Assembly: GCF_963676685.1 (NCBI RefSeq)
Contig: NC_092354.1
Coordinates: 63,364,001 to 63,428,000, forward strand
From: Mytilus edulis
Lineage: Eukaryota
Direction of reading: 5' to 3'
Length of the DNA: 64,000 nucleotides
In this document: positions 3,898 to 55,682 of the stretch, in pieces
Layout of the letters: every line of letters begins with the position of its first letter
How positions within the stretch are numbered: position 1 is the stretch's first letter
Notes under the pieces: model-generated
Seen by the model: only the letters and a program-made list of their open reading frames with translations
Databases searched by the model: none
Told to the model about the DNA's origin: nothing
Position numbers and translations under genes: made by a program

Positions 3898-6287
3898 TTA
3901 GCGTTTTCCACCATGTCCGCCATTTCCACCATTCCAACGACCACCGTTTCCTCCATAACCTCCATATCCACCGTTTCCTCCATTACCACCGTCCCAAGTA
4001 CCACCATTTCCACCTCTCCCATAATTCAAACTGTCTCCTCCATTCCCGTCTTTCCAAGTACCACCATTTCCACCATTCCATCCGTTTCCTCCATTCCCGC
4101 CATTCCAAGTACCACCGTTTCCGCCATTTCCAAATCTGGGCTTCCAAGGCTTTGGTGGTCCTTAAAAATGAAACACGTCATAATTAAAGTGTTGGGTCAA
4201 AAGTAATCACTTCTTGAGAAATCAAAATTATTAAAACCTGTTTTACGAAACCACTTAAGAGAGAGCAAAAACGTGGTCTCTAAAGACAGGTGGACTTTAA
4301 AAACAGGTTCATTTTTTTTTAAAATGTACTCAAGAGAGATCTAAAATTAATTGTCTTACAACACATGTTTTTGTTTTATACAGGTGTTCTCTTAAGCATG
4401 TTTGACTGTTATTACAAAAAATATGCTAACGGTATCAAGTATGTATATGAAGCAGTACTCCTGCAAAACTTTCTCAAAGACGAAAGGAAATATTCAATCA
4501 TAGTTCAGATGTAGTGGTCAAGTCCTAAAAATAGCATTTGAAGGAGTTCTTCAATCAAATCTTTACTGACATTAAGGATGCTACTGATAATAGGTTTATA
4601 TTTTGAACTTTTGTTTAAAAAATCACCACAGAGAAACGACTTCAAACTGTATCTATGACAAACCTGACTAATTCAGTTTAATATTTTAACTTTTCATCTT
4701 ATAGTAGGAACAGATCTGAGTCTCAATCGTGTGACATATTTATCAATCGGCAATCCTCGGGAGACTCCGCTACTCTCCTTCTATGAGGTTCGGAATCGGC
4801 CGAGTTGTGACGAATGACACATTTATGTCTCAAATCATGCCTCGCGCATGTGCATGTTTAACAATACAAACTATATTATTTTCATAATCGTATTGGAAGA
4901 CAGTTTGCATAATTCAGAGATGTTTTGTCAACACTGATCGTTTATAGCCACAAAAAAGCTTTTTTAAATAGATAACTTGGACAATTTTTACGTTTGGTTG
5001 TAATACGTAGTACGGTTAATCACAAGACATACCAATTAAGCTGAAAAAGCTACATTATGACGATGTCAGCATACGCATCGTGCCGTCGTCAAAGTTGAAT
5101 TCAAACATTGATGTATCTTAGTAATACAAGAAAAGAAAACTCAAAACACATCAATTATAAGAGGAAAACAACAAACGACAATGCAACATACATGAAAAAA
5201 CTATAAGTTATTGTTCATGACTTGTCACAGGACATTTTAAGAAAAAAAGATGGGCTGTACCTGGTTTGAATGCTAGCCGAATCTCGCTATTTATGGTAAT
5301 ATTAAATATACCGCTAAAATGACAAAAGTTAATGTACATGACGGGAAAACAATATGACGGAGAAATACATAAATAAATAATACAAGAGTACATTTCGACG
5401 CACGAGTGTAATAACGCCACAAAAAGTAACGTCACAGAGAAAAAAAATCAATAAACCTTCCAATAAGGTTTCAATTATGGTATTTAATGTAACTTATAAG
5501 AATTACAAGAATATTAATATAGAATTGTTATGGTAATTGTGCAACTACCTATGTCGGCCTTTTTACCTAATCAAACTGTGTAATAAACAATCCTGTGCAC
5601 ATAGTTGATTTAAACTAAAATCATACAAGTGAACTGGGAGATTAATTATCTCTTCTTTTAGATACGAATAAAACATAAAAAAAGAATCACAAAAACAAAC
5701 ATTAAGACACAAAACAATATCCGATCAGATTTACAAATACAACTTATTAACTAAATATGCGAATTCACAAGTAGAAAAGCAGTCATATTAAGGATTAGGT
5801 CACGTTAGGTACTTAAAAGACAGGACAACATAAATGGTAAACCACAATCTAAGACGTGGAAAACATGTCCTTAGTTAGGACTAGCTTACACACACATATA
5901 TTGTCATATTGATTAGCAGTCTTTTATAAAACTTGTGTATGTTATACTTGTTTGTATTTTAAAACTTTTAATACATCGAGATCGGAATAAAATAGTACGC
6001 TTCTTTAGCAACTGAATAAGAATAGAAGTAAGAAAAACTGCGTTTAAGATAAAACATTTGAAGAAATAAATACTGATGGCAATGTATTGATTAAATTTAT
6101 TTGCCATTTACCAGATGTTCAAGTAATACTTTAAAACAAACTCCACAGTATAATGATATAGAGAAATAAGATTTATGAAATCATGTGAAAAACATGAATG
6201 ATAATTGATATACATTTACTTACTTCTAACCCAAGTTCCAGAAACTGCTACAACCAGACAAACGACTAAGATGATAGTAAGCTTCAT
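3898..6287 (-). CDS. Secreted Gly/Asn/Trp-rich protein A1, 108 aa; exons 6224-6287 and 3898-4160
   Basis: Exon 1 encodes MKLTIILVVCLVVAVSGTWVR, then A|gtaagt. Acceptor tttttaag|GA restores the frame: RPPKPWKPRFGNGGNGGTWNGGNGGNGWNGGNGGTWKDGNGGDSLNYGRGGNGGTWDGGNGGNGGYGGYGGNGGRWNGGNGGHGGKR*. TATATAA at 6327-6333; AATAAA at 3791-3796. Confidence 0.9.
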
Positions 6288-8360: not shown

Positions 8361-10468
8361 TAGTCCTGTAAAATTATTAATACTGCATACATAGCAAAAT
8401 GGAGCAACGAGTAGCTTTTAATTGATAACTAGTACCAATTAAAACGCATATCTTGTAATTAACGAAAAACATGTTGATAGTTAACACAAAGATTCATATA
8501 ATACTATATAAATAGTATAGTATGTTGGTCCTGGTGTGAGTAGACGGTTATGTTCAAATTACTGTCTACATTAAAGTTCAATTGTGGGTCCTATTTGCAA
8601 TCTGCATTAACATTCATATCAATGTCATTCAAAACCATATCTATCGATCGGAATTTAAAACAAATTCTACCTTAAAGCTAAATGTTAAATTGCAAGATAC
8701 ACACACTATTCGTACAGTGTAGGATAAAATAGAAGTTAATTTTCCCATTGGCTCTTTCTAGTGAGAGAGCAATATATCTTTTGTAGTCTGAGTGGAGTTG
8801 AAATTATACGGATATTGATAAAAATAATAAAATGCGTTTAAATTGGTTTGAGTATTTATCGACATTTGCAGATTTCCGATACTTGAGCGATGTTACAATG
8901 GTTGTTTGTTGTACACAATGACGGAAAGTGTAGCTGATTTGATACTAGCTTTAGTTTTCTTTTGAACAGGAAAAAAGAAAAAGTTAAATATTAATACATA
9001 CAATTTTATAAAATGATGTGTCAGTCTTAAACAATGAAACAAAACCACATACCATAAACATGTAGTCGGCTGTTACAGATCTTATATCGAGCATATAAAA
9101 CAAGTCAATTGAGAAAACTAACGATATATTTGTAACAAAACAATCAACAACAAAAAAGTGATATACATGAACTAACGACATCCACTGAATTACAGGCTCC
9201 TGTATTGATACTATGTTAACTTGACCATTAAATCGTCCGTTCATATATTTGACAGTATATCTATATTGGTTAACCCACAATACTGCATATTTGCAAATAA
9301 ATGCAACATATTCCTTCTTATATACAAACAATATAAAAGAATTCAAATACAGCCGAATGTGGGGATGTGTGTGTAGGAACAAAACCTACAGACAAATTAC
9401 ATAATAACGTGAGTTCATGAAAAGCCGATTGGCATTTTACAATAAAAGCTGTGAATATGCTTGTAAAATTCTGCATGATATTATGAGTCTGTTTACATGC
9501 ATAAAGGTTAAAAACCTAAGCGTCAGTAAAAAGTCGTTAATCATCGAAATGCGCATGTATTGCATTGAAATCGCCACGAATAATGTCATTGTGTACATAT
9601 GCGTGATGTGGTGAGCTATTCAATCTACATTCCCAATATAATTTGCCAATATCAGGTGAAGTCACACTTTTAATATCTAAAGAAAATTGTTGCTTTTTGT
9701 CGTGCTCGAACACGTATCGTAGAATATCACGCTAAATTCATTTTGAAGACGTATGGTTAATTTCCATTTAGTTCAGGTCACACTGTAGCTAATTCACAAA
9801 CGTTGCTTTATTTTCAGATGCATTACTTAAAGTTCTAATGCGATAGTTCTGTATTTTAATATCCGGTTAAGATATGTTTCGGTGTAATTTCATTTGAAGT
9901 AAAATTATGTTTTAAAAGAGAGGCGCAAGATACCAAATGGACATTCAAACTCTAAGTTTAAATTTCCGATATTGTGTCAAAACTGTCTTCAAAAGCAAAG
10001 AAGAGCGCAGAGTAACATTTGGATTGTATTGATAAGTGAAAATAGTTCAAACTCAGTTTAATGTATGTTTTTATACTCATTGGTATACAAGTTCATAAAA
10101 GAGCGTTCGAAGCACCTTTAAAGTGGCGTTCACTTTCTCTTTCAGTTTCTACTGGTAAGTTGTAAGTTGAAGGCAGATGTTTTATAGATTCTGTGAAAAT
10201 TTTGGACAACTTGTTTACAATACGGGATGATTTACAGTTTGATATAATGCATATATATATATATATACATACTTAAATTGACGACATATTCTAACCATTA
10301 AGTGTCTTTTGTTTATTGGTGTTGTCAGGATACTTTCTTATTGGTATATACACTCTGATTTTCAATAAGACATTTTTAAGCATTGGCAAATCAAAAACCC
10401 AAGTAAACACATTTCAATTTTTCTTTTTTTGTGACTTAAAAAAAAAAAAAAAAAAAAGTCAATATATT

Positions 10469-11745
10469 TTAGCGTTCTCCACCATGTCCGTCATTTCCAC
10501 CATTTCAACTTCAATTGTTTCCTCCACGACATCCATATTGACTGGTTCTTCCATTTCCACCATTCCAACGACCACCATTTCCTGCACGACCTCCGTGCTG
10601 ACCCGTTCCTCTATGTCCACCATTCCAACGACCACCATTTCCTCCACGACCTCAATGCTGACCGTTTCTTCCATTTCCACCTTTCCAACAACCAGCATTT
10701 CCTCCACGACCTCCATGCTGACCGGTTTCTTCATTTCCATCATTCCAAGTATCACCATTTTCTCCACGACCTCCATGCTGACCGCTTCCTCCATTTCCGC
10801 TATTCCAACGACCACCATTTCCTCCACGACCTCAATGCTGACCGTTTCTTCCATTTCCACCTTTCCAACAACCAGCATTTCCTCCACGACCTACATGCTG
10901 ACCGGTTTCTTCATTTCCATCATTCCAAGTATCACCATTTTCTCCACGACCTCCATGCTAACCGCTTCCTACATTTCCACCATTCCAACGACCACCATTT
11001 CTTTCACGACCTCCATGCTGACCGCTTCCTCCATTTCCACCATTCCAACGACCACCATTTCCTCCACGACCTCTATGCTGACCGTTTCCTCTATTTCCAT
11101 CATTCCAACGACCACCATTTCCTCCACGACCTCCATGCTGACTGCTTTTTACATTTCCACCATTCCAACGACCACCATTTCCCCCACGACCTCCATGCTG
11201 ACCGGTTCGTCCATTTCCACCATTCCAACGACCACCATTTCCTCCATGACCTCCATGCTGACTGGTTCCTCCATTTCCACAATTCCAATGACCAGGATTT
11301 CTTCCACGACCTCCATGCTGACCGCTTCCTCCATTTCAACCATTCTAACGACCACCATTTCCTCCACGACCTCCATGCTGACTGCTTCCTCCGTTTCCAC
11401 CATGCCATGTATCACCATTCACACTATTCCGACCATTTTCTCCATTCCCACCATTCCAAGTATCACCATTCACACCATTCCGACCATTTTCTCCATTCGC
11501 ACAATTTCCTGCATTCCCACCGTTTTCACCAATCGAACCATTTGCCCCATTCCCACCATTCAAAGTATCACCATTAACACCATTCAAGGTATCACCATGT
11601 CCAACATGTCGGCCATTTTCACCATTTTCACCATTTTCATTATTCGAACCGTGTCCACCATTCCAAGTACCACCGTTACCACCATTTCGACCGTTTCCTC
11701 TATTTCCTCCATACCACGTTTCAACATGTCCATCATTTCCAGTTC
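10469..11745 (-). pseudogene. Repeat-expanded terminal exon of family member C (about 15 x 60-bp units, GGNGGSGQHGGRGGNGGRWN); six in-frame stops and no recognisable exon 1
   Basis: Phase-1 acceptor ggattacag|GA ACT GGA AAT at 11745. The frame is unbroken to GHGGER* at 10469-10471. Premature stops at 11345, 11336, 10832, 10652, 10511 and 10505. Intron and far-upstream homology is present at 13260-13820, but the signal exon and TATA block are missing. Confidence 0.8.
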
Positions 11746-11857
11746 CTGTAATCCAAGCAGATGTAGAATAGTTTAATGAAGAAGCAGATGTATAATAATA
11801 TATTATAATGACGAGTTAAAAGTAATTGACTCTTATACTATATAATTGAAATAAATA

Positions 11858-16253: not shown

Positions 16254-18163
16254 TTAGCGTTTTCCACCATGTCCGCCATTTCCACCATTCCAGCGACCAC
16301 CTTTTCCTCCACGACCTCCGTATCGACCGTTTCCTCCATTACCACCGTCCCAAGTACCACCATTTCCACCTCTCCCGTAATTCAAACTGTCTCCTCCATT
16401 CCCTCCGTTCCAAGTACCACCATTTCCACCAGTATGTCCGTTTCCTCCATTCCCGCCATTCCAAGTACCACCGTTTCCACCATTTCCAAATCTGGGCTTC
16501 CAAGGCTTTGGTGGTCCTTGAAAATGAAACACGTCATAATTAAAGTGTTGGGTCAAAAGTAATCACTTCTTGTGAAATCAAAATTATTAAAACCTGTTTT
16601 ACGAAACCGCTTAAAAGAGAGCAAAAATGTGGTCTCTAAAGACAGGTGGACTTAAAACAGATTCAATTTATTTCAAATGTACTCAAGAGGGATCTAAAAT
16701 TAATAATGTTACAACACAGGTTTTTGCTTTATACAGGTGGTCTCTCAGGCATGTTTGACTGTTATCACAATACATATGCTAACGGTATCAAGTATGTATA
16801 TGAAGCAGCATTTCAACAAAACTTTCTCAAAGACGAAAGGAAATATTCAATTTTAGTTCAGATGTAGTGATCAAGTCCTAAAACAGCATTTGAAGCAGTT
16901 CTTCAATCAATTCTTTACTGACATTAAGACAAACCTGACTAATTCAGTTTAATATTTTAACTTTTCATCTTATAGTAGGAACACATCTGAGTCTCAATCG
17001 TGTGACATATTTATCAATCGGCAATCCTCAGGAGACTCCGCTACTCTCCTTCTATGAGGTTCGGAATCGGCCGAGTGGTGACGAATGACACATTTATGTC
17101 TCAATTCATTCCTCGCGAATGTCCATGTTTAACAATACAAACTATAATATTTTCATAATCGTATTGGAAAACAGTTTGCATAATTCAGAGATGTTTTGTC
17201 AACACTGATCGTTTATAGCCACAAAAAAGCTTTTTTAAATAGATAACTTGGACAGTTTTTACGTTTGGTTGTAATACGTAGTACGGTTAACCACAAGAAA
17301 TACTAATTAAGCTGAAAAAGCGACATTATGACGATGTCAGCATACGCATCGTGCCGTCGTCAAGATTAAATTCAAACATTGATGTATCTTAGTAATACAA
17401 AAAAAAAAAACAAACCAAACGGCCTCTCCACCTAATTAAACTGCGTAAAAAAATCCTGTGTACATAGTTGGTTTTTAACTAAAATCATACAAGTGCACTT
17501 GGTGATTAATTATCTGTTCTTTTACATACGAATAAAAGATAAAAAAAAATAACCACAACAACAAACAATAAGACACAAAACAATATCCGATCAGAATTAC
17601 AAATACAACTTCTTAACTAAATATTCGAATTCACACTTAGTAAAACAGTCATATTAAGGAATAGGTCACGTTCGGTACCTAAAAGACAGGGCGACATAAA
17701 CGGTAAACCACAATCTAAGACGTCGAAAACATGTCCTTAGTAAGGACTAGCTTACACACACATATAATGTCATATTAATTACCAGTCTTTTATAAAACGT
17801 GAACTAAAACTTGTGTATGTTATACTTTATGTATTTTAAAACTTTTAATACTTCGGAATAAAAAGTACGCTTATTTAGCAACTGAATAAGAATAAAAAAT
17901 AAAAAACTGCGTTTAAAATAAAACATTTGAAGAAATAAATACTGATGGCAATGTATTAATTAAATTTATTTGCCATTTACCAGATCTGTTCAAGTAATAC
18001 TTTTAAATAAAAACTCCAGAGTATAATGATATAGAGAAATAAGATTTATGAAATCATGTGAAAAACATGAATGATAATTGATATACATTTATTACTTACT
18101 TCTAACCCAAGTTCCAGAAACTGCTACAACCAGACAAACGACTAAGATGATAGTAATCTTCAT
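16254..18163 (-). CDS. Secreted Gly/Asn/Trp-rich protein A2, 108 aa; exons 18100-18163 and 16254-16516
   Basis: MKITIILVVCLVVAVSGTWVR A|gtaagt ... ttttcaag|GA, giving RPPKPWKPRFGNGGNGGTWNGG...GGRWNGGNGGHGGKR*. TATATAA at 18203-18209; AATAAA at 16147-16152. Confidence 0.9.
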
Positions 18164-22136: not shown

Positions 22137-24517
22137 ATGAAGCTCACTATCATCTTAGTCGTTTGTCTGGTTCTCGCAGTTTCTGGAACTTGGGTTAGGA
22201 GTAAGTAAATGTATATCACTTATGGTTCACATAATTTCAAAAATCTTATTTCTTTACATCATTATACTGTGAATTTTTTTTTAAAGTATTATTTGAACAG
22301 ATCTGGTAAATGGTAAATAAATCTAATTAATACATTTCCATCAGTATTTATTTCTTCAAATGTTTTATTTTAAACGCAGTTTTTCTTATTTTCTATTCTT
22401 ATTCAGTTGCTAAATAAGCGTACTTTTTTTTCCGATGTATTAAAAGTTTTAAAATACAAAAAGTATAACATACACAAGTTTTAGTTCACGTTTTATAAAA
22501 GACTGGTAATCAATATGACAATATATGTGTGTGTAAGCTAGTCCTAACTAAGGACATGTATTCCACGTCTAAGATTGTGGTTTATCGTTTACTTGTCCTG
22601 TCTTTTAGGTACCGAACGTGACCTATTCCTTAATATGACTGTTTTACTAAGTGTGAATTCGAATATTTAGTTAAGAAGTTGTATTTGTTATTGTGATCGG
22701 ATATTGTGTTGTGTCTTATTGTTTTTGGTTTTTGGTTTTTTATCTTTTATTCGTATGTAAAAGAAGAGATAGTTAGTCACCCAGTGCACTCGTATGATTT
22801 TAGTTTAAACCAACTATGCGCACAGGATTTTTTTTTACACAGTTTGATTAGGTAGAAAGGCCTACATAGTTAGTTGAACAATTACTATAACAATTATATA
22901 TTAATATTCTTGTAATTGTTGTAAATTACATTAAATACCACAATTGAAACCTTATATGATTTTTTTTTAATTTTTTTCTGTGACGTTACTTTTTGTTGTG
23001 TTATTACATTCGTGTGACAAACACACAGTTCGTCATTCTATAAAGCTGTTTTTTGTACTGTCCTTAATCAATTTTAATTTTTCGTTATTACTCTGTGATT
23101 GACATGTCGTAATGTACTATTATATTATCTATTTAAATATTTCTCTGTCATATTGTTTTCCCGTCATGTACATTTACTTTTGTCATTTTAGCGTTATATT
23201 TAAGAGTACCCTAAATAGCCAGATTCAAACCAGGTGCAGCCCATCTTCTTTTCTTAAAATCTCCTGTGACAAGTCATGAATAATAACTTATAATTTGTGT
23301 CTATGTATGTTGCATTGTCGTTTGTTGATTTCCTCTTATAATTGATGTGTTTTGGTTTTCTTTTTTTGTATTACTAAGATACATCAATATTTGAATTCAA
23401 CTTTGACAACGGCACGATGCTTATGCTGACATTGTCATAATGTAGCTTTTTCAGCTTAATTGGTTTTTCTTGTGATTAACCGTACTACGTATTACAACCA
23501 AACGTAAAAATGTCCAAATTATCTATATATAAAAGCTTTTTTGTGGCTATAAACGATCAGTGTTGACAAAACATCTCTGAATCATACAAACTGTTTTCCA
23601 ACACGATTATGAAAATAATATACTTTGTATTGTTAAACATGGACATGCGCGAGGCATGAATTGAGACATAAATGTGTCATTCGTCACCACTCGGCCGATT
23701 CCGAACCTCATAGAAGGAGAGTAGCGGAGTCTCCCGAGGATTGCCGAATAATAAATGTGTCACACGATTGAGACTAAGAGGTGTTCCTACAATGAAAAGT
23801 TAGAATATTAAAATGAATTCGTCAGGTTTGTCATAGATACAATTTGAAGTCGTTTTCCTGTGGTGATTTAAAAAAAAGATTTAAACCTATTAACATTAGC
23901 ATCCTTAATGTCAGTAAAGATTTGATAGAAGAACTCCTTGAAATGCTGTTTTTAGGACTTCACCACTATAACTGAACGTAAATCAAATAATCTCTTTTGT
24001 CTTTGAGAAGGTTATGTAGGATTGCTGCTTCATTTGAATACTCAATACTGTTAGCATATTTATTGTAATAACAGTCAAACATGCTTAAGAGATCACCTGT
24101 ATAAAGCAAAAACCTGTGTTGTAAGACCATTAATTTTAGATCCCTCTTGAGTACATTTCAAATAAATTGACTCTGTTTTTAAAGTCCACCTGTCTTAAGA
24201 CACCACTTTTTTGCTCTCTCTGTAGTGGTTTCTTAAAACAGGTTTTTTTATTTTGATATCTCCAGAAGTGATTTCTTTTGACCCAACACTTTAATATTGA
24301 CGTGTTTCATTTTCAAGGACCAAAGCCTAGATTCGGAAATGGCGGAAACGGTGGTACTTGGAATGGAGGCAATGGAGGAGACAGTTTGTATAATGGGAGA
24401 GGAGGACATGGTGGTACTTGGAATGGTGGGAATGGAGGAAGCGGTCTGTATGGAGGTAGTGGAGGAAACGGTGGTCGCTGGAATGGTGGGAATGGCGGAC
24501 ATGGAGGAAAACGCTAA
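22137..24517 (+). CDS. Secreted Gly/Asn/Trp-rich protein A3, 87 aa; exons 22137-22200 and 24318-24517
   Basis: TATATAA at 22091-22097. MKLTIILVVCLVLAVSGTWVR A|gtaagt ... ttttcaag|GA, giving RPKPRFGNGGNGGTWNGGNGGDSLYNGRGGHGGTWNGGNGGSGLYGGSGGNGGRWNGGNGGHGGKR*. AATAAA at 24619-24624. Confidence 0.9.
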
Positions 24518-27500: not shown

Positions 27501-28240
27501 CGTAATATTTTGCATTAATCCAGTTAAAGTCGTCGTTCTGTTTTAATTTCAATTATCAAGACATGAAAGACCTATTATCAGTAGTATCCTTCTATTAGCC
27601 TTCATTTATGTTAATAAAGTTAACTCGGAAAATATTTGATGGAAGGACTCGTTTACATATGAGCAATTGTTGGACAGATAAACTCATCATAGATACCAGG
27701 ATTAACATTTTATATTTACGCCAGACGCGCGATTCGTCTACAAAAGATTCATCAGTGACGCTCGAATCAAAAAATGTTTCAAAAGGCCAAATAAAGTATA
27801 AAATTGAAGAGCATTGAGGACCAAAAATTCCTAAAAGTTTTGCCAAATATAGCTAAGGAAATCTATTCCTGAGGCAGAAAAGACTTAGTTTTTCAAACAT
27901 TCAAAATGTATTAACTGTTAACCTATTATTATGAACATATCAATAATAACTCAAGTCCACACAGAAGTGCTGACTACTAGGCTAGTGATACCCTCTCCAC
28001 TGGCAGTGTCATCAACCCAGTAGTTTGACATCACAATATATCTGAGCATGAAATTAAAGAACTCCATTTGTCTCTAAGACTGTTTAGTGAAGATGCTGGT
28101 CCGTATAAATTACTCGATATTGCTAGCATATTTATTTCAATTATATAGTATAAGAGTCAATTACTTTTAAATCGTCATTATAATATATTCTTATACGTCT
28201 GCTTCTTCATTAAACTATTCTACATCTGCTGGGATTACAG

Positions 28241-28358
28241 GAACTGGAATGATGGACATATTGGAACGTGGTATGGAGGAAACAGAGGAAACGGTCGAAA
28301 CAGTGGAAACGTTGGTACTTGGAATGGTTGGAATGGTGGACACGGTTCGAATAATGAA
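28241..28358 (+). pseudogene. 5' fragment of a second C-type exon (frameshifted, truncated); its last codons lie at about 21259-21274 on the minus strand
   Basis: gggattacag|GA ACT GGA ATG.. has a 1-nt deletion relative to the exon at 11745. Homology ends at about 28358. Confidence 0.75.
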
Positions 28359-31512: not shown

Positions 31513-33180
31513 TTACCAGCCTCTCCCACCATTTCCACCATTGCCACCTGTCCATTGACCACCATTTCCGCCATCTTCGTAATTCCAACCATCTCCTCCA
31601 TTTCCACCTCTCCATCGACCACCATTTCCCCCGTATCCGCCATACCCTCCGCCTACGCCTCCGCCATTCCCACCATTCCAAACACCACCGTTTCCACCAT
31701 TCCCAGTTCTGGCGTTCCAATCAGGTTGAGGTTTAGGTTTTGGTTTTGGATCTGAAAAAAAAACCCAGTAATGAGTGAAAGCAATCGGTTTCTCGAACAT
31801 AATCTATAAATACAATAGTGAATATTATATACTGTTTAAAAATTATGGAATTGAAACACAGACTAGATGATCAGATGTAATGTGTTTAATTAGATATTGC
31901 AGATCAAATTTATTCATTTATAGTGTATTAATGTACGTTTTTTGATTGAGTTAAGCCTGCCAATCCTATTGTTTTAGAAAAAGGAAGAAAGCTTGGATCC
32001 ATTAAAACGTTTAATCCCGCTGCAAATGTTTGCACCTGTCCTAAATCAGGAATCTGATGTACAGTAGTTGTAGTTTGTTTATGTAATTTATACGTGTTCT
32101 CGTTTCTCGTTTTTTATTCTATATAGATTAGACCGTTGGTTTTCCAGTTTGAATGGTTTTACACTAGTAATTTTGGGGTCCTTTATAGCTTGTTGTTTGG
32201 TGTGAGCCAAAGCTCCGTGTTGAAGACCGTACATTGACCTATAATGGTTTACTTTCTTTAAATTGTAATTTGGATGGAGAGTTGTCTCATAGGCACTCAC
32301 ACCACAACTTTCTATATCTATTTAAATACATAAATCATAGATACTGTGCGTGTAGATACATTTATGTACTTAATATACTTATGAAGTAGATGAATTCAAA
32401 AGTGTATAAGCCACATCTTATGATATGACAAAATTATGGTTTAGAATAAATAAACTCGTCATATATATCAGATACAATAAATGTGTATATGTAAGATATG
32501 ATGTAGACGAATCAGATACAGTATAATCATTGTAATTTATATAGCGATTATTTTAGGAATACAAATATTGCTATCAAAGTTTTCTGAAACTTAGTATATC
32601 TTTTACATGATAGATTTGTTAAATGAAACAAATACAGTACAAAGAATTACTTCCTACTTATGGAGTCTTCTCCTGAATGTATTATAACATTTGAGCATAC
32701 AACCATTACATTCATACTGGTCTAATGTGAAGAAAAAAGAGAAAGATAACGTCTTTATACCTCAACAGCACCCGAATGTGCTAATGTTCCATGAATTAAA
32801 ACGAATTTGGTTTATCTTATACTTTTAATATTTTATCTCAAAGATAAAAAGTATAAAAGAAATTTTAATTAAAATCTGAATAGGTTCGTTAAACTGGCAG
32901 ATAAATAAAAATAAAAAATTGGATGATTTGAATTTAGAGTAAAATATTGATGATTGTATATTACTTTAATCGTTTTCTAGTTTTCAATCAATTGCCATCA
33001 ACCAGATCTTTACATGGAATCATTTCAGATAAATACATTGCAGTGGAATCAAATCAATTAAAGACTTCTGAAAAAATGTAAACCACATAATTATTACTAA
33101 TAAATCATATACTTACGCCTATGCCAAGTCCCAGAAACTGAAACAACCAGACAGACCACTAAGATGATAGAAAGCTTCAT
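31513..33180 (-). CDS. Secreted Gly/Asn/Trp-rich protein B, 100 aa; exons 33117-33180 and 31513-31751
   Basis: TATAAAA at 33219-33225. MKLSIILVVCLVVSVSGTWHR C|gtaagt ... ttttttcag|AT, giving HPKPKPKPQPDWNARTGNGGNGGVWNGGNGGGVGGGYGGYGGNGGRWRGGNGGDGWNYEDGGNGGQWTGGNGGNGGRGW*. AATAAA at 31417-31422. Confidence 0.88.
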
Positions 33181-43896: not shown

Positions 43897-45873
43897 TCAC
43901 CCATTAAAATTTCTACCATTCCAAAATACACTGCCTCCGCCATTTCCGCCATTCCCACCATTCCAAACACCACCGCTTCCACCATTTCCACCATTCCAAC
44001 TGCTTCCACCATTCCCACCAACCCAAACGCCACCGCTTCCTCCATTTCCACCAGATGGTTGCCATGTTGAAGTTCTTGTGTTCCAACCTCCCGTTCCACC
44101 ACTATTCCCTTGATGACAACCTAAATATAAAAGATATATGGTCTAGTGCTTTCAACAAGTTTAATCCATTGAACAGAGCGTTAACATTTTTAAATTATAT
44201 TAGATTCAACATGCCAAAGAGTTTCAAAAAACTAAACAATTTCAACTGTAATTTATTATAGGTCAAATGCATTTTTATAATAAACAATATTCACTTTTAA
44301 GGAAATTAATCGATATGAGATTGTGTTGATCTTTCAAAACATGTTGTGATAAACCTTTGAATGGTAGGAAGTTCTTTCTACAATACTGGTACCTTGTGAA
44401 TCACATGTGAAATATATTGTTAAAGATATTGTCGGCATAAGTGTGTAGATACACTTATCCATAACATTTGCATTCATTTAAGTACAATATTGTAGATTAT
44501 GAAATTGTTATGTCAACTTTCCCACGTATTTCGTGACAACAGAAGGTAAAACCAAAGTAAGGAATTGGCCGTTGTAGAATCTAAAGCATCATGGGTAATT
44601 TCATTGTTCGTACCTCAAAATGAAAATAACGTCACGTCATTGGTTAAATTTCCATTGTTTATGAAATGTTTAACCAATCAGGACGTTTTGGTGTACACTT
44701 TTGAAAATATTACCCAGAATGCATTAGATTCTGAAACGGTTTTGATATAAAACTTTTACTCACATATGTCACTACATTCTCTGAAAGTTTTGAAACGATT
44801 TGCGTTTCCCTTACAACCTTTGTAGTGAAATTCCTCACACCGTCCGGTTGCCGTGTTATAGTAGAAACGTCTTAACCAGGAGGAACACTGTCCTGAATCT
44901 GGTGGTAAGTTACAACTTTGTTTAGGTGTTGGTCCTGGAAAAAAACAATAACATATGGTGGTAAGGTACAATTAGATTAAGGTTTTGTTCCTGGAAAAAT
45001 ATAAAATCTGAAAGTAAAGTATGGTGGTAAGGTACAATTAGGGTCAAGTTTTGTTCCTGGAAAAAATATAAAATCTGAAGGTAAAGTACAATTAGGGTCA
45101 GGTTTTGTTCCTGGGAAAACATAAAATCTGAAAGTAAGGTACAATTAGGGTCAGCTTTTGTTCCTTGAAAAACATAAAATCTGAAAGTAAAGTATGGTGG
45201 TAAGGTACAATTAGGGTCAAGTTTTTTTCTGGAAAAAATATAAAATCTGAAGGTAAAGTACAATTAGGATCAGGTTTTGTTCCTGGGAAAACATAAAATC
45301 TGAAGGTAAGGTACAATTGAGGTCAGGTTTTGTTCCTGGAAAAACATAAAATCTGAAGATAAGGTACAATTAGGGTCAGGTTTTGTTCCTGGAAAAACAT
45401 AATAGCTGGTGGTTAGGTACAATTAAGTAAACAATTGGTCCTAGAAAAACATAATAGCTGTCATATTTTATTGTGAAAGTAATCTATTCCCCCTTAATAT
45501 GCAATAGCCACAACAGATATGAGATATCATTTTTTTTTCTAATTATAAGCTTTATAAAATATAGTACCCATAGAGTATAAAATAATCAAATGTATGTGTA
45601 TTAAAAGACAGCTAAATATAGTCACATTCAAGCCTAATTAACGTGCAAACTATTTAAACTTTAAAACAAACACAACCTAAAATGCAAAATCAATGAGTGG
45701 AACATTTTAAAGTAAATTAGCAGTCTTAGGATAATCATATAAATATAGTATAAAACTTGTAAAAAAAAAGGTGAACAAAATAACTATTTTTTATAATTGA
45801 TATACTTACGCCTATTCCAAGTTCCAGATACTGCTACAATCAGACAGGCGACTAGGATGATATAAAGCTTCAT
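43897..45873 (-). CDS. Secreted Kunitz/BPTI-domain plus Gly/Asn/Trp-rich protein K1, 152 aa; exons 45810-45873, 44764-44934, 43897-44120
   Basis: TATAAAA at 45913-45919. MKLYIILVACLIVAVSGTWNR C|gtaagt; ttttccag|GA, RPTPKQSCNLPPDSGQCSSWLRRFYYNTATGRCEEFHYKGCKGNANRFKTFRECSDI T|gtgagt; tatttag|GT, CCHQGNSGGTGGWNTRTSTWQPSGGNGGSGGVWVGGNGGSSWNGG...FWNGRNFNG*. All introns are phase 1. Confidence 0.88.
44764..44934 (-). CDS. Kunitz-domain exon of K1
   Basis: Canonical C-x8-C-x15-C-x7-C-x12-C-x3-C spacing, with FYYN and YKGCKGNANRF motifs. P1 is Ser by alignment to BPTI. Confidence 0.93.
44935..45460 (-). repeat. Intronic minisatellite (52-66 bp, about 9 extra units) built from a splice acceptor plus the Kunitz exon start
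   Basis: Unit ttttccag|GA ACA AAA CCT GAC CCT AAT TGT ACC TTA (CCA CCA) resembles the true exon start GA CCA ACA CCT AAA CAA AGT TGT AAC TTA CCA CCA. Confidence 0.85.
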
Positions 45874-48800
45874 ATTTCTATAAGCCTCTAAATTGAAAGA
45901 GGGTTTCATGTGTTTTATAGTACGAGTGGATTTGAAATATTACGGATATTGGTAAAGCGACGATATGCGTTTTTGAATTATCTATCTAACATCATGGACA
46001 GATTTCCCCCACTTCAGCTCTGGTTATGACTGTTTCTATTGTACAATAAGACAGAAATGATTGCTGATTGGGTACAGACTTATACAATCTTTTGATACGT
46101 TTACGGAAAAAGGAAACATAAAAAACAAGGTTCAGGGGTTATTTATCACTCTTATTTAAATCAATAGCTCATACTAAAAACTTGATTTAATGTGAAGTGT
46201 TTATATCCACAATTTTAGACAACACATTACCTATGAAGACTGGTATATAATGGGGCAGATGTCAACATTGAAAGATTTATCTCAAAAATTATCATTTAAA
46301 CTATTTTAAAATTAATACGTTAATTCGTGTAAAATTATCTAAAATGTATCATTATGCATGTTATGTGATCATGGTTGTTTCAATGTGTATATTTGTCAAT
46401 GAGATTGGGTATGACAGTGTTAATTTGATTTATTTGACGATCTGCACTTTGTGTATTTTACTTAAATCTTAAGGCATAAAAAATCGATCTCTACCAAATA
46501 ATTCCAATTAAACCTATGTAGTAAGCAATAATCCTTGGCGAGGTAAAGACCTCAATATAATTTTGAGATGAAGAACCGTTGATTCTGGTTGTTGAAAGGT
46601 AAAAACTTAATTATAAATTTCCAGTCTTTTATATAAAAAGATATTGACCTACAGATCAATGTTAGGACTTTGGGTACTGTTCAATTTGAAACATCAATGC
46701 AAATAGTTATAAGATTACTTTCCATTTATTACTCTCGAGTAAAAAGAAAGAGAAAATAGTAAGCGGGCAATCAGAAACCGTCAGTCCTAAAAACAATTTA
46801 ACATAACGTTCAAAATAGACACGATGAAAAACAAACAAAAACAAAAAACTATACAAAAAAAAATATTACACAGAAACTTTGTGCAAGGAGTATTGACGAA
46901 GGATTGACAATATACCTAGTCTTTTGATAACAAAGAGACTTGACAATAAACAGTACACGAAAACAACAAGTGTATGCATCCTATAAAGTTCCGCTTGGCG
47001 GTAACGTATAATTAATTAGTATGTAAACATACATATAGTTATGAACCATGTTGTATACTTAAGGCATTAGTAATATACCGCTGTTCAATAGTCATAAATT
47101 GATTTCACTGAAACCAATCGGTGTCACAGATCCGGGTCACAAAATAATTTTGTATAAAAAAAAACAATTGTGTTTCGCAATTAAAGTTGAATTATAATCG
47201 ACAGAATAGCCAATTGCAGATGAAATCATATAAGAAATATTTAATATAACGAATTTGCTGTTGACTACTAAAAATAAGCCTTGTCTGTACCTTGTTGGTG
47301 CACCCGATCTCATTTTAAGGTGGATAAAAACTGAATTTTTGATAATTTGGCACAATGCGAGTAATTACCCCACCCCCTCCCTAACGACAAAATTAAAAAA
47401 AAATTAAAAACCACAAAAAATAAAAAAAATAATAAGAAGCACATTATTAACCGATCACAGATTATATTGTTAGAAAAAGCTACGTTGTATCTTACAAGTA
47501 ATAATAATGTGATAGTTGAAGATGTCATTCGACAATGACAACTGTACATTGACAGGAAAATGTATTATGACAAGCTAAAGACGACATTTTTGTGTTTTGA
47601 GAAATTTTTGGATTAATACATGGCTATATGGAAATAAAATGTAGACTCTTTTATAGATATAGGAAGATGTGGTATGAGTGCCAATAAGACAACTCTCCAT
47701 CGAAGTCACAATCTATAAAAGTAAACCATTATAGGTCTTTTATGTCTATTATCTAGACTATTCAATATTCGAACTCAGAAAGGTTTTAAGAACCTTCGGA
47801 TTTTGAACATGCATGTGTTTTTCCTTTGAGGTATTTAGAGTTCATGGCAAATCTTCGGGAGTCCCTCTTAAATTCATACGTGTACATACACTTTCTAATA
47901 AATAAAAATAACACTTTATATATTTTGTGCGAAAGCTTTTGTGGATTAACCTTCATCATAAAAGCTCAAACCCAGACATTTTAAGGCCCAATATTGTTTT
48001 TTATTTTAGTTCTTTTATATGTTTTAGAGTTATGTATGGCGTCCATTATCACTGAACTAGAACACATTTTTGTTTAGGGGCCAGCTGAAGCACGACTCCG
48101 GGTGCAATATTTTATCCCTGTGTTAAAGACCCATTGATGGCCTTCGGCTATTTTCTGTTTTTTTGGTCGGTTTGTTGTCTCTTTGACACATTCCCCATTT
48201 CCATTCTCAATTTTACAAAAGTGACAAATAATAGTTTATAAGCTTGACATATGTTTTATGTTATCGTTTTGTCGTTACAGAGGCATTAGCTGTCAAATTC
48301 ATGTTCACCAATTTGACTCAAATCATCATATTTGATTTATGACATAATTACACGTTTATCAAAATTACAATAAGTATAAAATAAACCATTAACAAGACAA
48401 AGACTCGATAATAATATAACAGCATTTCGTGTGTATTTCTAAGTCTTGAAGCCATCTAATCAACCACTGAGATTACCTCCGAAGACTGCCGACGGTCATA
48501 TAACCCGTTATGTACATAAATGAAAATTTTAATAGATAGCAACGACGTGCAATTGGATATTTATATGTGTGTTTGGTTTCATGTTAAAGGTTAACAAAAT
48601 AAGTAAATCATCGTTTTTAACAGCGGTATACTACTGTTGCCTTTATTTACCTGTAAAATAATGATTTTTTGCTGATTTAATCAATTAACGAAATGCTTCA
48701 CCCTTGTTTCACTTTCGATATCGACAATCTTTTCTTTTTATTGCTGAACATGCCTAGTATATGCGTAAGCCATTTACAGCTAAGTTCACATAAATAATAT

Positions 48801-49009
48801 TACATGAGGTCGAATTAGTCACTTGCAAGTCAATTGTACATTGAGCTTATGTTGACAAAAATCTAACTGCTTATAACAACATATTATTTCCAAATTCCGT
48901 TGTTATTAACTCGCAAAAAAACGTATTTTGATTTTGTCTCTAAAATGTGATAATGCCTCTCTTTTAAACCCACATTAATAATGACCGTAGACATTGATGG
49001 TTACAAAAG

Positions 49010-49990
49010 AGCGACGGAAGGGACATCCAAACTCATAAGACGAAAATAGACTGACAACGCCATAACAAAATAAAATAAAGGCCCAAAAGACAAACAATAC
49101 ACAAAACTCAAAATAGAAATCTATAGACTGAGCAACACGAACCTCCAACAAAAAACCGGGGTGATATCAGGTGCTCCTAGAGGGTAAGCAGATCCTGCTC
49201 TCCATGTGGCACCCGTCAGTTTTCTTTTATCATGTTAATACAAACCCGGTGATATCTAATTTGGTAGATCACATTCGGGAAAAAAGGACAGAATTGCGGT
49301 TACAGCAATTGGAATATATCCGTCGTCATCTGTGAAACAGATATTCGATAACGGTCAGCCAACTGTTAATGGCGTCCGTTATATTAACACTTCACCACTT
49401 CACCACTTGGAACGCTTGGTCTAATAGCTTTTCTTGTTAGCAGCAACCCTCTATCAAGGGAATCATGATAGGAAAAAAACTAGCCTTGGGATATCGTATC
49501 AACTATGATATACTGTGGATTCATTAATATTCGTGGATTTTCATGGATTTCGTGGGTAAAGGTGAACCACGAATTCAAATGTTTAACGAAATACAAATGT
49601 TATATTGGTTGTATGCCGATTTTGGCAAAACCACGCAATAAAATATCCACAAAAATGCAATATTTACCTAATCCACGATAATTGATACCCACGAAAAAAA
49701 ATGAATCCACAGTATGTACTTTATATGTATGCGCTGCTCGAATGTTGCTACATAGAAATGCAAAGTTCACAATTAGTGAGGTGAAATAATCTATTTTTTC
49801 ATAAAGTTTTGTTTTCAACCGACCCTCAACGTCAATTTCGAAATACAAATCAAGATGTGGGCCAGACTTAATTGCATCTATTGTATCCTTTATTTCAAGG
49901 TTGGTGGGATAGATGCGTTCAGCATAGTAACCAAACTTTGAATTATTTAGGGGAAAGTCAAGTTAAAGGATCATGCTGACTTATTTTCTT
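49010..49990 (-). mobile_element. Decayed Penelope-like retroelement RT fragment
   Basis: Translates to ..FEIDVEGRLKTKLYEKIDYFTSLIVNFAFLCSNIRAAHTY.., a typical Penelope RT C-terminal motif. It contains frameshifts and is interrupted by a MITE. Confidence 0.75.
49513..49712. mobile_element. 200-bp TA-flanked MITE nested in the Penelope fragment
   Basis: ta|ctgtggattcatt ... aatgaatccacag|ta. Confidence 0.8.
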
Positions 49991-50869
49991 TTACCTTTTA
50001 AAAAGATCCTTTATGAAATTATCCTCATTTGAATATAGAAACAGTTCGACCAGAAGAGGAGCACAGTAATTTTTAATGGTAATCTATGCCTTTCGAGGTA
50101 GAAAAGCCGTAGTATTTAAAAAATCTTAATTGTGTAAACAGGTAATTTATAAATATAACCATATCAATAATAATTCATATCAGCCCATAGTATAATATAA
50201 TAGACATGCATATTAAGCAAACAGTTTATAGAATAAAATACAAGCTATCATAAGTAAAGAATAAGAGAGAGATAAAAAAAATAAATAAGAAAGTTGGAAA
50301 AGTCATATAAGTACATGTATGTGATGATGACGTGAGTGTTGATGATGATGACGTGCCGTGTCAGTATAAAAAACGCTTTATGAAGGCACAACAAGGAACA
50401 GGTTTGTTTATGTCAATCAATTAAGCAAGCGACAATCAATCGTTATATTCTTGTATTTTATATTATGTGCAAAATTATTATCCCAGCGGGTTTGAAAATC
50501 ACGGAACGGTTGTATGGGTCATGTTAACGGAAGTCTGTATTACACGTTGCTGCTTGCTACCATTGTTTATGTACTGAATTTGAACTGTCGATTCCTGAGG
50601 TATCACTAGTTTTTTAACCAGTGTATCGATCGGAATATGTAAATGAAATACATATTGTCCTAACTTGGTCTATGATATCGGTGCTGACATTTTTATTGTT
50701 AGTTTAGAATTTTTTTATCAAATGTCCTGCGCCCTTATAGATTTTGTGTGAGATTTCCTGTTCATAAGTTATTACGTTTCTTCTAATTCTTCTTTTATTT
50801 ATACCGGATAACAACCACAATTATTAGACTGAATGTTTTGCCATGACTTCGGTGCGCATACTCCTCCTA

Positions 50870-51290
50870 TAATGTTTAAATTTAGTGCAGCTTTGTCATC
50901 AAGGCTTTGGAAGCCTCGACTGACGGTGCTGGTGCAACCCCTGGAGGGAGATTCTTCCAATCTCTGATGGTTCGTGGAAAGAAAGAATATTTCCGGTAAT
51001 CACTTCATGATGCTGGAATGTGGAAAATTCTGTCATCCATGTTTCTTGGAAGTCAAACGACCATCCCTTGTCACTGCAACTTTCTCTTTAACAATTTTGA
51101 AGAGCATGGTAGGTCTTGCATCTTTTCGCCTTTGTTCCATAGATCTCCATTCCAGGTGATTTAGCATCGTACTAACAGTAGGGTGATTTATATGTTTGTT
51201 CGTTACATATCGTGCTGCTCGTCTCTGGTTCATTTCTTATCGGTCAATCTATGTTTTATTGTTTGGATCTCATAACACACAGCTGACGGT
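50870..51290 (-). mobile_element. 3' fragment of a non-LTR retrotransposon ORF2 (CR1/L2 group)
   Basis: QRRAARYVTN..VSTMLNHLEWRSMEQRRKDAR.MLFKIV, followed downstream by an SFHEP/IRDWKNL-like remnant. Confidence 0.75.
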
Positions 51291-52903
51291 TACAAATTCC
51301 TAACAATGCAAAATCGGCCTTAGCCGATTTGTGTATGATCTTTTTGAGCAACTTTGGCTTGTAACATACATTAGACATGTATTGTCGAAATGCGCATCTG
51401 GTGCAAGAAAATTGGTACCGTTAATTTTATTAAATGCTCTCAAATTGTGGTTATACATTTTGAATACCTATTTATTTGTCTCCAGCATAAAGGTGCATGG
51501 TACTGTACTTGAGCATACAACCATTCCATTAAAGGCAAAAAATGGTTTTATATATCAATAGATATGTTATTCTTCAACGTATTTTTTACAGTTCACACAG
51601 TATATGTGCAGTTTTATGGTCTTTACCATGATGTTACATAAACGTCTGAGTATTTATTCATTTTTAAATTATGGCCCTTTTTTGTCCTAAAGGGGTTTGT
51701 TCATTTTTATAAAATTCCCTTCAAGCGTCACTGAAAAGATTTTATGTGTTGATATTTGTTGAAATCAAATAGTATCAGGTTGAACCTTTCCCGTTCAACT
51801 AGTTATATCCCATTTTTTTCAGATGAAAGCTCACATAATCAGCATAATGACGACCCTTGTTCATGTAGGTGGTAATATACTGTATAGCTTTGAAGGCGTT
51901 GACAATACGACACTCACCCGATAAGTTAGGTATTTATGAAAATAAGAAAATATGGCGGGGTTGCCATTGAGACAACTATTCACAAGAGACCAACATGGCA
52001 TTGTTCCTTTTTTTATTAACTTGATTCTTAACTGCTAGAAACCCCATAGAAACATGAAGGTGCCGTTGTGTATTTTACGTCCTTGAATAAAGGTGTTTCA
52101 TTAGTTTTTTGTCAAGTGCGTTGTGTTGTCTGTTGTTCTTCAAATTTTTGTTTGATTGGATACTTGTCCTTTTCTCTCGTTTCTCCTTTACCGTTTTGTG
52201 TTAGTACCAAACGACGATCATATTAAAACAACAATTAGCAATGTGAGTGGGAGAGATAAGTAATGATGATCATATTTTTATTTTTAGGCGTTTTCATTAA
52301 ACAAAAAGTAGTATTTTGGTAAACATATGGCGGTATTATGTTCCGACTTGCAGTTTTACTTGCAGAAAATGTTCTATACCTAATGAAAATAGTTAAACAT
52401 CTCCCCTTTTTACTATTTGTAGCTAGATTTGGTGGTATCTTTAGAGGTCGTTCGCGCCTTTCGAACATTTGAGTTGTCAACACATTGCTTTTCCAATGAT
52501 AATGCGAATGATATTGCAGGCAGAACGTCTATAGATATTAAGGTGATTGTATTTTAGCACGTGGTCCATATTTGAAAAAAAAATTAAGGTGGATTTGGAT
52601 ATGATGGCCAGTTTATTCTTATATTGTAAAAAGAAAAGCAACTCCGTTCCACAGGCTATAAACGATTGAACGAGAGAGATTAATTCTAACGACGCAAAAA
52701 ATGTTGCATTGATTTAATTCAATAAATTCTTTATTCGACAAAAAGTATACAAATAATGGTAATGAAAATGTTTGGCAGTCAAATTCTCCATCTTAGATAT
52801 GCATATTACATGTTGCATGTTGTTTATACAATTTTTTTTCATCACATGAATTCTTAAGAAATACTAGTAGACGAGAATGTGATATTAAGCGTCAAGGCCA
52901 TAA

Positions 52904-55682
52904 TCACGCTGGGGATGGTTTTTGGCCTTGAGTAGACATCTCATCGGTACCATCACTGTTTCCGCCATCTCCTCCACCACCACCATTTCCACCATTTCCA
53001 CCATTACCGCCATTTCCTCCATTTCCGCCATTTCCACGACCTTCAGTAACACCACCATTCCCACCATTTCCGCCATTACCTCCATTTCCTCCACCATTAT
53101 CACCACCACCATTTCCGCCATTCCCACCGCCTCCTCCATCACCTCCATTACCAAAACCGCCATCTCCTCCATTACCTCCGTTTCCCCCATCACCTCCATC
53201 ACCAAAACCGCCGTTTCCACCGTTTCCACCGCCTCCTCCGTTACCTCCGTCACCAAAACCACTATCTCCACCATTTCCGCCATTCCCTCCATTACCTCCA
53301 TTTCCGCCAGATGGCATCATTGTTTCAGTTGTTGAGTACTTGCCAACCCCTCCATCCATATTTGGTGTCATGCCTCCATTAGAACTCATGTCGATTTGTC
53401 CTTCGCCTAAATAATAAAAATAACATCTAATTGTTATATATATTTACTGTTTTTTTTTAAATTATAGATAACCCATTTATAACGTTCGATCAATACTATT
53501 TACAAATGTTGGAAAACGATGGGAAAATTCATACTCATTAATTGAAAAACCCGACATAGAAAACTAAAGATCGAGTAATACGAGCCCCACAAAAAAACGG
53601 AAATGATTTTAAGTTCTCAGGAAGGGTAGTCAGATCCTTCTCTTTATGTGCAACCCGATGTATTGAGTTAGTTAGTGGTTATTATTGCCAGGAGTAATAT
53701 GCACGCCTTGTTCAAACAATCAACATTATACAAATCTGTCTCTACATACTTGGACATTGAAGTTGTTTGCATATGATCATATATTGGAATGAAAAATATT
53801 TGTATTAAGTTTTTAAATGTTGATTTGTTCAGTATACATCTAAAAACTTCCTGTTTCATTGTGTTTATAAAAAAAGAAAAAAATATACAAATTTAAGCTC
53901 CCCCCTCCGTTTTCGCCATTTCTCTCACCCTCAACATGCTCAAGAAAACAAATATCATAGATGTGAAAAACAAATCTGTTACTTACATGTATCTCTGCAT
54001 TTTTGTAAAGTTTTGAATCGATTGGAGTTTCCCCGGCATCCTTTGTACCGGAATCTCTCGCATGCTCCGGTTTCGGTATTAAAGAAGAAACGTCTCAACC
54101 AGAAGAAACATTTGCCTGAGTCTACTGGTAAACTACAATCCGGTTTTGGTATATTTATCTTGTATTATTATAAAATACGAAATGCTCGTTGTTTTTAAAG
54201 GTCGAAATGATCGTTGTTATTTTCAAAGCTAGTATGATATGTAAGAGGAACGTTTTACGAAAATATGCATATAACGTGAAAACTTTAATTAAAAGTTCCT
54301 TTCACTTCCTTTTTAAACACGTTTCTGGAACATATTCTCGTAAATAATGTTCAACGTTTCTCAATGATTATCTTCTGTCATTCTATACATTAATTTTCAA
54401 TGGTTAACGTCGTCCGAGTCAAGTATGACCACCTATGGTGTGCAGTGTGTGTGACATATACAGACCTAATTGTGCAATAACTATATCACATTTAATAGTC
54501 TCTTTTAAATTCATTCCAGATATCTTGGATTTAAAGAAAAATGATACGGACAATTGTTAATCAATAAAGACCGTTTGTAAAACTCTAGATCTATGTTTTT
54601 GCAACTTATCGGGCATTTGGTAGCTGTTTCTAAATATTTGTACTGGCAGGAAATTGCTTCTGTAGAGCAATGCTTATGATAAGGGTCTTTTGTTTTAAGG
54701 GCATACGATACAGTTTTGATCCTGTATTTACAGTTTGATGAAAATTTCCATATAAGCTATTTTTTGCCTGCTTAAATCAAATATGTAATACAAAATATAC
54801 CTTCATGTGCTACTTTGTTAGTTAAATGATGTCGAAATTTTGTATATTTGCCCAAAATTTGGATTTGTGGCCGTATTTTCCCTTTCGAAAGAAAGCCATA
54901 ACTTTTTTGTTTTAAAAGATAAACACAAATTGTTTTTTGTTAAATAGTTTGTAATTTTTGTATTTTATAAGTATCCTATGCATTTTTTATTCAGAAATAG
55001 CTCATATTTATCAAATGGTCATGATTTAAGAAAAAAAGCGTATGTTTTTGCTGTATATTTATCAAAATTAAAAAAATTTCTCCATTTACAGTTTTATAAA
55101 ATTTGGTCCACATAATCTCCTTGCAAAATGAAACAAAATGTCTTTTTAAAAAATAGGGGTCCATGCACTCGTTTACAAATTAAATCAGTTTGAATGATAA
55201 AAAATAGTCGAAAAATGAATCTTTTCCCGATATGTCATAGTTTGACGTCGCGAAAATAACATTTTACGTTAGCAACGTCATTATCTCCCCTGTAACTGTA
55301 TCGTATGCCCTTTAACAAAAACAATGAGAAATGAAAAAATAATTAATAATAATTAACATAAAGATTCATTTTAAAGTGTGATAATTTCAGAAGCAAAGCA
55401 AAATCGATCTAGCGTGCACGTGAATACTCAGGTCTAGATATCTTTTAAATTAAAATGATCATAATTATTTATTTAAAATGTAAAACACGACAACAATTGA
55501 ACTCATCGACAACAAAAAGACAAAACATTTACAAAGGAGCTTAAATTATAAAATATAAATAAGAATTAAAATTCTGAAATATTAAGGAACACATATTTTA
55601 TATACGTACGACTTCTTCCCCAGTTCCAATGTCCAGAAACAGACACAATCAGACAGACAGCTAAGGTAATTGATATCTTCAT
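52904..55682 (-). CDS. Secreted Kunitz plus acidic Gly/Asn/Asp-rich protein K2; exons 55610-55682, about 53987-54158/54166, 52904-53406
   Basis: TATAAAA at 55719-55725. MKISITLAVCLIVSVSGHWNWGRS C|gtacgt. The Kunitz exon ends ACA T|gtaagt; ttatttag|GC gives CEGQIDMSSNGGMTPNMDGG...(GGN/GGD)n...QGQKPSPA*. AATAAA at 52730-52735. The Kunitz acceptor is uncertain. Confidence 0.8.
53987..54158 (-). CDS. Kunitz-domain exon of K2 (not in the ORF track)
   Basis: INIPKPDCSLPVDSGKCFFWLRRFFFNTETGACERFRYKGCRGNSNRFKTLQKCRDT(C). Canonical Cys spacing; P1 is Phe. Confidence 0.88.
54699..55311. mobile_element. TTAA-flanked non-autonomous TIR element (Kolobok-like) in K2 intron 1; one-ended relative at about 58690-58962
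   Basis: ttaa|gggcatacgatacagtt ... aactgtatcgtatgccct|ttaa. Confidence 0.8.

Follow-up and report, generated by a model that had tools for sequence, protein, structure and literature searches.

An intron within the last Kunitz cysteine codon of two Mytilus edulis genes

Class 1-1 shuffled modules have phase-1 introns on both sides, the Kunitz exon of the amyloid precursor protein being an example given in the available text of PMC3927616. In the sFlt1/Flt1 system, intronic polyadenylation (poly(A)) signals set the isoform ratio, as described in the available text of PMC2926593. Here we compare with these systems two Kunitz genes of Mytilus edulis, K1 and K2, on the minus strand of a 64,000-nucleotide stretch (assembly GCF_963676685.1, contig NC_092354.1, positions 63,364,001 to 63,428,000; hereafter the window, with positions counted from its first letter). 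In both genes an intron splits the codon of Cys6, the last cysteine of the Kunitz domain. As in class 1-1 modules, the Kunitz exons of K1 and K2 are flanked by phase-1 introns, as transcript joints show, and their skipping would preserve the frame. They differ in that the domain does not lie wholly within its exon, the next exon completing the last cysteine codon. The likeness to sFlt1/Flt1 is that read-through of the donor into an in-frame stop would release the N-terminal domain from its anchor, whereas in K1 and K2 the introns neither share a poly(A) signal nor show conserved elements, and the listed contigs include no short transcript.

The explanation that we favour, with a probability of roughly 55%, is that the split-Cys6 intron is spliced out, that K1 and K2 are tail-tethered and likely secreted shell-matrix proteins, and that the stop met two codons into the read-through probably comes with the inherited phase-1 donor as a by-product. 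Splicing would be constitutive, with the tail anchoring the domain in the matrix; a constitutive tethered product is the most likely output. The split-Cys intron would then serve as the marker of an unnamed family of likely nacre proteins, helpful in annotation and in the study of shell-protein evolution, with no new mechanism involved. No published account of the split-Cys junction, or of the family by name, was found in a search of the literature open without subscription.

Exon structure and splice joints

K1 has three coding exons that specify a protein of 152 residues, which matches a Mytilus edulis record and has near-identical models in M. galloprovincialis. The coding part of exon 1 (45810..45873, minus strand) encodes a signal-peptide-like N terminus and ends in a phase-1 donor. 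Intron 1 (875 nt, ends CT..AC) is removed at the joint 44933/45809 in two contig runs, X1 and X2. Exon 2 (44764..44934, 171 nt, minus strand) carries the Kunitz domain, is phase 1 at both ends and closes with ATA T|GTGAGTAA, its final base being the T of Cys6. Intron 2 (44121..44763, 643 nt, minus strand) reads C-E-stop when unspliced, and is spliced at the predicted bases, with GT..AG ends, in both contig runs that cover it (X1 and X2). The coding part of exon 3 (43897..44120, minus strand) starts with GT TGT CAT at 44120, finishing Cys6 and adding a seventh cysteine to give C-C-H, and continues into a Gly/Asn/Trp-rich tail (41% Gly, 16% Asn). The transcript contig extends past the coding part to 43707.

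K2 is built in the same way. The coding part of its exon 1 (55610..55682, 73 nt, minus strand) is signal-peptide-like, ends in phase 1 and is joined to 54150 in transcripts. The Kunitz exon (53987..54150, minus strand), also bounded by transcript joints, again closes on the T of Cys6, here ACA T|GTAAGTAA at 53987. Intron 2 (53407..53986, 580 nt, minus strand) reads C-K-stop when unspliced. It is spliced at the predicted bases, with GT..AG ends, in X1, X2 and X4, three of the four runs in the joint table. The last exon (coding part 52904..53406, minus strand) starts at 53406 with GC GAA GGA, giving C-E-G, and encodes a Gly/Asn/Asp-rich tail (51% Gly). The sole poly(A)-like loose end among the listed K2 ends lies at 52700, past the tail exon. 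Each junction string occurs once in the window, on the minus strand. Splicing in X1–X4, and the poly(A) end of one of them, led us to treat them as RNA; no record labels them so. The preliminary description of this locus, which placed the end of both Kunitz exons on the T of Cys6, read C-E-stop and C-K-stop through the unspliced donors and gave K1 a seventh cysteine, is borne out in each of these respects.

One feature of K2 departs from its transcripts. The phase-1 acceptor that X1–X4 use is missing from the window at 54150-54190 (minus strand), where the sole open AG is in phase 0, and at this point the intron contigs of X1 and X2 read different letters from the window. A genome search found no second copy. 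Either this allele carries a deletion or the assembly is in error.

A third gene with the same junction at the sequence level, L035, lies 50 Mb away. It has a signal exon followed by a Kunitz exon that closes with T|GTGAGTAG, an intron of 559 nt and a GGN exon of 308 codons that starts GT GAA; an M. coruscus model represents the spliced form of this type. Since L035 shares the signal-Kunitz-GGN layout and the donor, the split junction is best taken as one inherited event. K1 and K2 are sisters in a quick tree of Kunitz domains (SH-aLRT, an approximate likelihood-ratio support, 90), and counting them as two independent cases was rejected for that reason. The seventh cysteine is specific to K1: it is found in all five members of the K1 cluster and in neither K2 nor L035, so that the cross-linking role which the preliminary description suggested for it could concern K1 alone.

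Both introns of K1 contain repeats. A high-copy repeat with an inverted self-match occupies about 44563-44740 in intron 2, beginning 23 bases past the donor; raw reads pile up on it and continue into unrelated sequence. The raw-read runs X23 and X24 cover this intronic repeat only and not the K1 exons, and are uninformative on isoforms. In intron 1, there is a tandem array of units of about 50 bases (44935-45460), and these units are similar to the Kunitz exon's acceptor and opening codons.

Kunitz domain, tail and shell matrix

K1 and K2 exceed the curated PF00014 cut-off (21 bits) with 72.1 and 67.1 bits, respectively. Alignments, including those to PDB entries, show six cysteines at Kunitz spacing together with the core Gly, Phe, Tyr and Asn residues. 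The best PDB sequence matches are SmCI, boophilin and TFPI, with which the six cysteines and core residues are common. K1 and K2 differ from the Kunitz/BPTI pattern in reading Y-K-G-C where Y-G-G-C is usual, and in their low-complexity tails. A single-sequence fold prediction was poor (pLDDT, a predicted per-residue confidence score, 46). The canonical Kunitz binding loop has a small P1' residue and Gly-Gly before Cys4. At the positions that we take to be P1-P1' by BPTI numbering, K1 has S-S, K2 has F-F and L035 has R-A; the residues before Cys4 are K-G in both K genes and G-G in L035. Classical protease inhibition by K1 and K2 appears doubtful, because Lys replaces the usual Gly in both and P1' is bulky in K2, and the domain may serve as a binding module more than as an inhibitor of the classical kind.

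Both proteins have an N terminus that is hydrophobic by inspection, followed after the domain by the Gly-rich tail, and tail-bearing models also occur in M. galloprovincialis and M. coruscus. The closest described protein is Unigene53667 of Perna viridis, reported in the available text of PMC6641155 from both acid-soluble and acid-insoluble nacre on the basis of two peptides. As far as that text shows its sequence, it resembles K2 in the end of the signal region (VSG-x-W-x-W-G-R), the R-P-x-x-P-D-C entry to the domain, the KTLQKC motif and a GGNGG tail, with 25 of 51 domain positions identical when counted by eye. It differs in lacking, by eye, Cys2 and Cys4, in having a Thr-rich linker and in being annotated there only as papilin-like. 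Both peptides fall within the Kunitz domain and so cannot separate isoforms. The presence in nacre of a tail-bearing relative suggests that K1 and K2 are likely shell-matrix proteins, and the tethered form is likely both old and built into nacre. Kunitz proteins have also been recorded in the M. edulis shell: a table in the available text of PMC5854119 lists two unnamed signal-plus-Kunitz proteins of 184 and 208 residues, given without sequences.

Origin of the junction and of its in-frame stop

A Pfam PF00014 search that scored 150 of 174 candidates gave 112 matches, 110 of which include Cys6. Almost all strong predicted donors of these domains (50 of 54) are phase 1, mostly 4–28 bases past the start of Cys6, and those of the top BLAST relatives of K1 and K2 lie at offsets 10–13, three to four codons further on than the K1 and K2 donors. 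In the ancestor of the family, a class 1-1 Kunitz donor of the ordinary kind would have shifted a few codons upstream, once and in the same phase, a route to which we give a slightly better than even chance.

Much of what is read through the split donor would follow from the donor itself. The cysteine on read-through is automatic, since any phase-1 T|GT donor reads TGT, and the next codon is Lys or Glu because the donor is GTRAG. Nothing forces the stop, which comes after 70 of 397 distinct GTRAGT sites (18%) in 631 kb of genomic DNA. U1 pairing is the basis on which intronic donor bases compensate for a weak exon end. With T at −1, a strong intronic half, GTRAGTA, would be required, which in frame gives Cys, Lys or Glu, and then TA-N; in about half of cases this last codon is a stop. 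Indeed, all four donors that split Cys6 in this genome (K1, K2, L035 and a further candidate, L028) are GTRAGTA, and 49.5% of the GTRAGTA sites in the genomic DNA lead into a stop. In the set of predicted Kunitz donors, those without G at −1 have A at +7 in 13 of 22 cases and those with it in two of nine, an excess in keeping with compensation for the weak end of the exon. Three of the six signal-exon donors of the cluster, all from close paralogs, read S-K-stop at a place where a product makes no sense. Moreover, 34 of 50 predicted phase-1 Kunitz donors meet a stop within 20 codons after Cys6, so that Kunitz exons in this genome generally yield a complete domain when the intron is retained.

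Several observations weigh against a mere by-product of an inherited donor. All three family genes have kept the stop, as against three of 27 other phase-1 GTRAGT donors, though the introns cannot be aligned; the difference gives a Fisher p of 0.005 if the genes are independent and 0.025 with K1 and K2 counted once. L035, the single case that was not selected through the finding itself, gives p ~0.18 when taken alone, and the excess is suggestive, not decisive. A donor within Cys6 occurs in only four of 110 Kunitz domains (K1, K2, L035 and L028), and donors beyond K1 and K2 were predicted by a weight matrix, not from RNA. The quick tree, of 105 of the 110 domains (five short ones dropped) and 52 columns, leaves the origin undecided. 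Contigs lose rare variants, the joints are those in the rows listed, a minority of the tables, and the exons have no raw-read coverage. Finally, a retained last intron would evade junction-dependent decay, and intron 2 is the last intron.

The preliminary description had also proposed that the fusion arose when splicing came to use the end of a stand-alone Kunitz reading frame as a donor. On this view a Kunitz exon that was terminal and closed with TGT RAG TAR would have been placed 5' of a phase-1 Gly/Asn exon, its last three codons then being read as a donor; splicing would now be constitutive, and the relic stop kept partly by donor constraint. The raw material exists: 14 of 107 other Kunitz domains end C-X-stop, and one of them, at C3:62190498 (TGTGACTAA), is a single base short of a perfect donor. 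Twelve of the 14 sit in one cluster. All three loci with a GGN tail combine the split donor with the stop, and the tail was found beside no other Kunitz exon in the scanned loci L001–L093 (mostly with flanks of 1–1.5 kb) or in 10-kb stretches around 14 others. The retention of the stop in three of three family genes points the same way, but the value for L035 alone blunts it. None of the 14 C-X-stop domains has Lys or Glu at X, the main C-X-stop cluster is not grouped with K1 and K2 in the weak tree, and the donors predicted for the nearest BLAST relatives lie downstream. L028 (G000:C9:67367642), an unrelated Kunitz gene for which no GGN tail was seen and no downstream exon found, reads C-K-Y at its predicted donor, so a split donor is possible without a stop. 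Recruitment is plausible and unproven, and we consider it rather unlikely. If true, it would be a clean, traceable conversion of a terminal exon into a 1-1 module and a route to new domain fusions. Many of the 12 clustered domains (G000:C6:86.98-87.19 Mb; L002, L004, L010, L023 and L069–L078) have a donor-like site right after the stop.

A further proposal of that description was that one gene makes either a free or a tethered inhibitor: retention of intron 2, or polyadenylation within it, would yield a free six-cysteine Kunitz protein beside the tethered one, with the stop under selection. This has no positive support and is improbable. The stop is present in three old paralogs and the intron is the last, but no retained or intron-polyadenylated form of K1 or K2 occurs among the listed contig joints, all of which are spliced; contigs can miss rare forms. 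Depth in the K1 contigs was about 3–15 in introns 1 and 2 alike versus 568–837 at the junctions, figures not counted as evidence as depth cannot rank parts. In L035 an AATAAA lies at +73, and the stop is followed by two further donor-like sites, yet K1 has its single AATAAA at +506, K2 has neither AATAAA nor ATTAAA, and about one AATAAA per intron is expected by chance, so there is no poly(A) signal shared by the three. Nor is intron 2 conserved among K1, K2 and L035: local alignments score 26–31 against shuffled means of about 24, with 42, 6 and 18 of 200 shuffles scoring equally high, and in K1 the sequence after the stop is the high-copy repeat. A public prediction, P0003, does end at C-E, but this model is partial and its N terminus is not the same, and its halt there is a caution for gene predictors. 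Many C-X-stop Kunitz ends already exist in the genome, and loss of Cys2 and Cys4 in the P. viridis protein, judged by eye from the available text of PMC6641155, argues against selection for a free inhibitor. Were retention regulated, one gene would supply Kunitz protein in two forms, one bound to the matrix and one diffusible, while the shell grows or is repaired, which is directly testable. We likewise give little credence to the combined proposal that the family was born when a terminal Cys-Glu/Lys-stop became a donor and that the stop is kept because the gene still switches between tethered and free Kunitz by retaining its last intron.

Gain of the intron within a once-continuous Kunitz-tail exon, by insertion with a short duplicated target, is highly improbable: GTGA follows both donor and acceptor in L035 (donor GTGAG, next exon GTGAA) and the next exon of K2 likewise gives C-E, but GT or GC past the acceptor is forced by the cysteine, the residues there are C-C in K1 and C-G in the Perna relative, the family yielded no intronless Kunitz-bearing member, and phase-1 introns just past the domain are the norm here.

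According to the preliminary description, its proposals would fail if only spliced forms were found and the split-Cys junction were routine. Only spliced forms are listed; a routine junction was rejected, given the four occurrences in 110 domains of this genome. Other searches added few relatives. A genome-wide search with the tail matched only itself, word searches returned few relatives, Atlas gave no match, and multi-Kunitz proteins dominate among the best 150 of 10,340 matches to representative proteins.

Kunitz-less paralogs and neighbouring sequence

The window also holds paralogs without a Kunitz domain. Paralog G (31513..33180, minus strand), modelled from sequence only, has two exons and a phase-1 intron. 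The signal-exon donor of paralog E (22137..24517, plus strand), A|GTAAGTAA, reads through to a stop, and paralogs D (16254..18163, minus strand) and B (3898..6287, minus strand) have stop-giving signal-exon donors of the same kind. Exon 2 of all four opens with a P-K-P-K-P run, as do the Kunitz exons of the K genes, and then resembles the K1 tail; K1 and G are identical at 20 of 26 bases at the exon start. The domain looks to have been lost by internal deletion rather than gained, a reading made with L035 taken as the outgroup. L035 was not placed in the exon-1 tree.

Two long Gly/Asn/Trp-rich frames with stops, at 10462-11815 and 28149-28358, are likely decayed paralogs. Upstream of K2, near 59600 and 58115 (minus strand), lies a pair of short exons, similar to each other and signal-peptide-like, that belong to another family.

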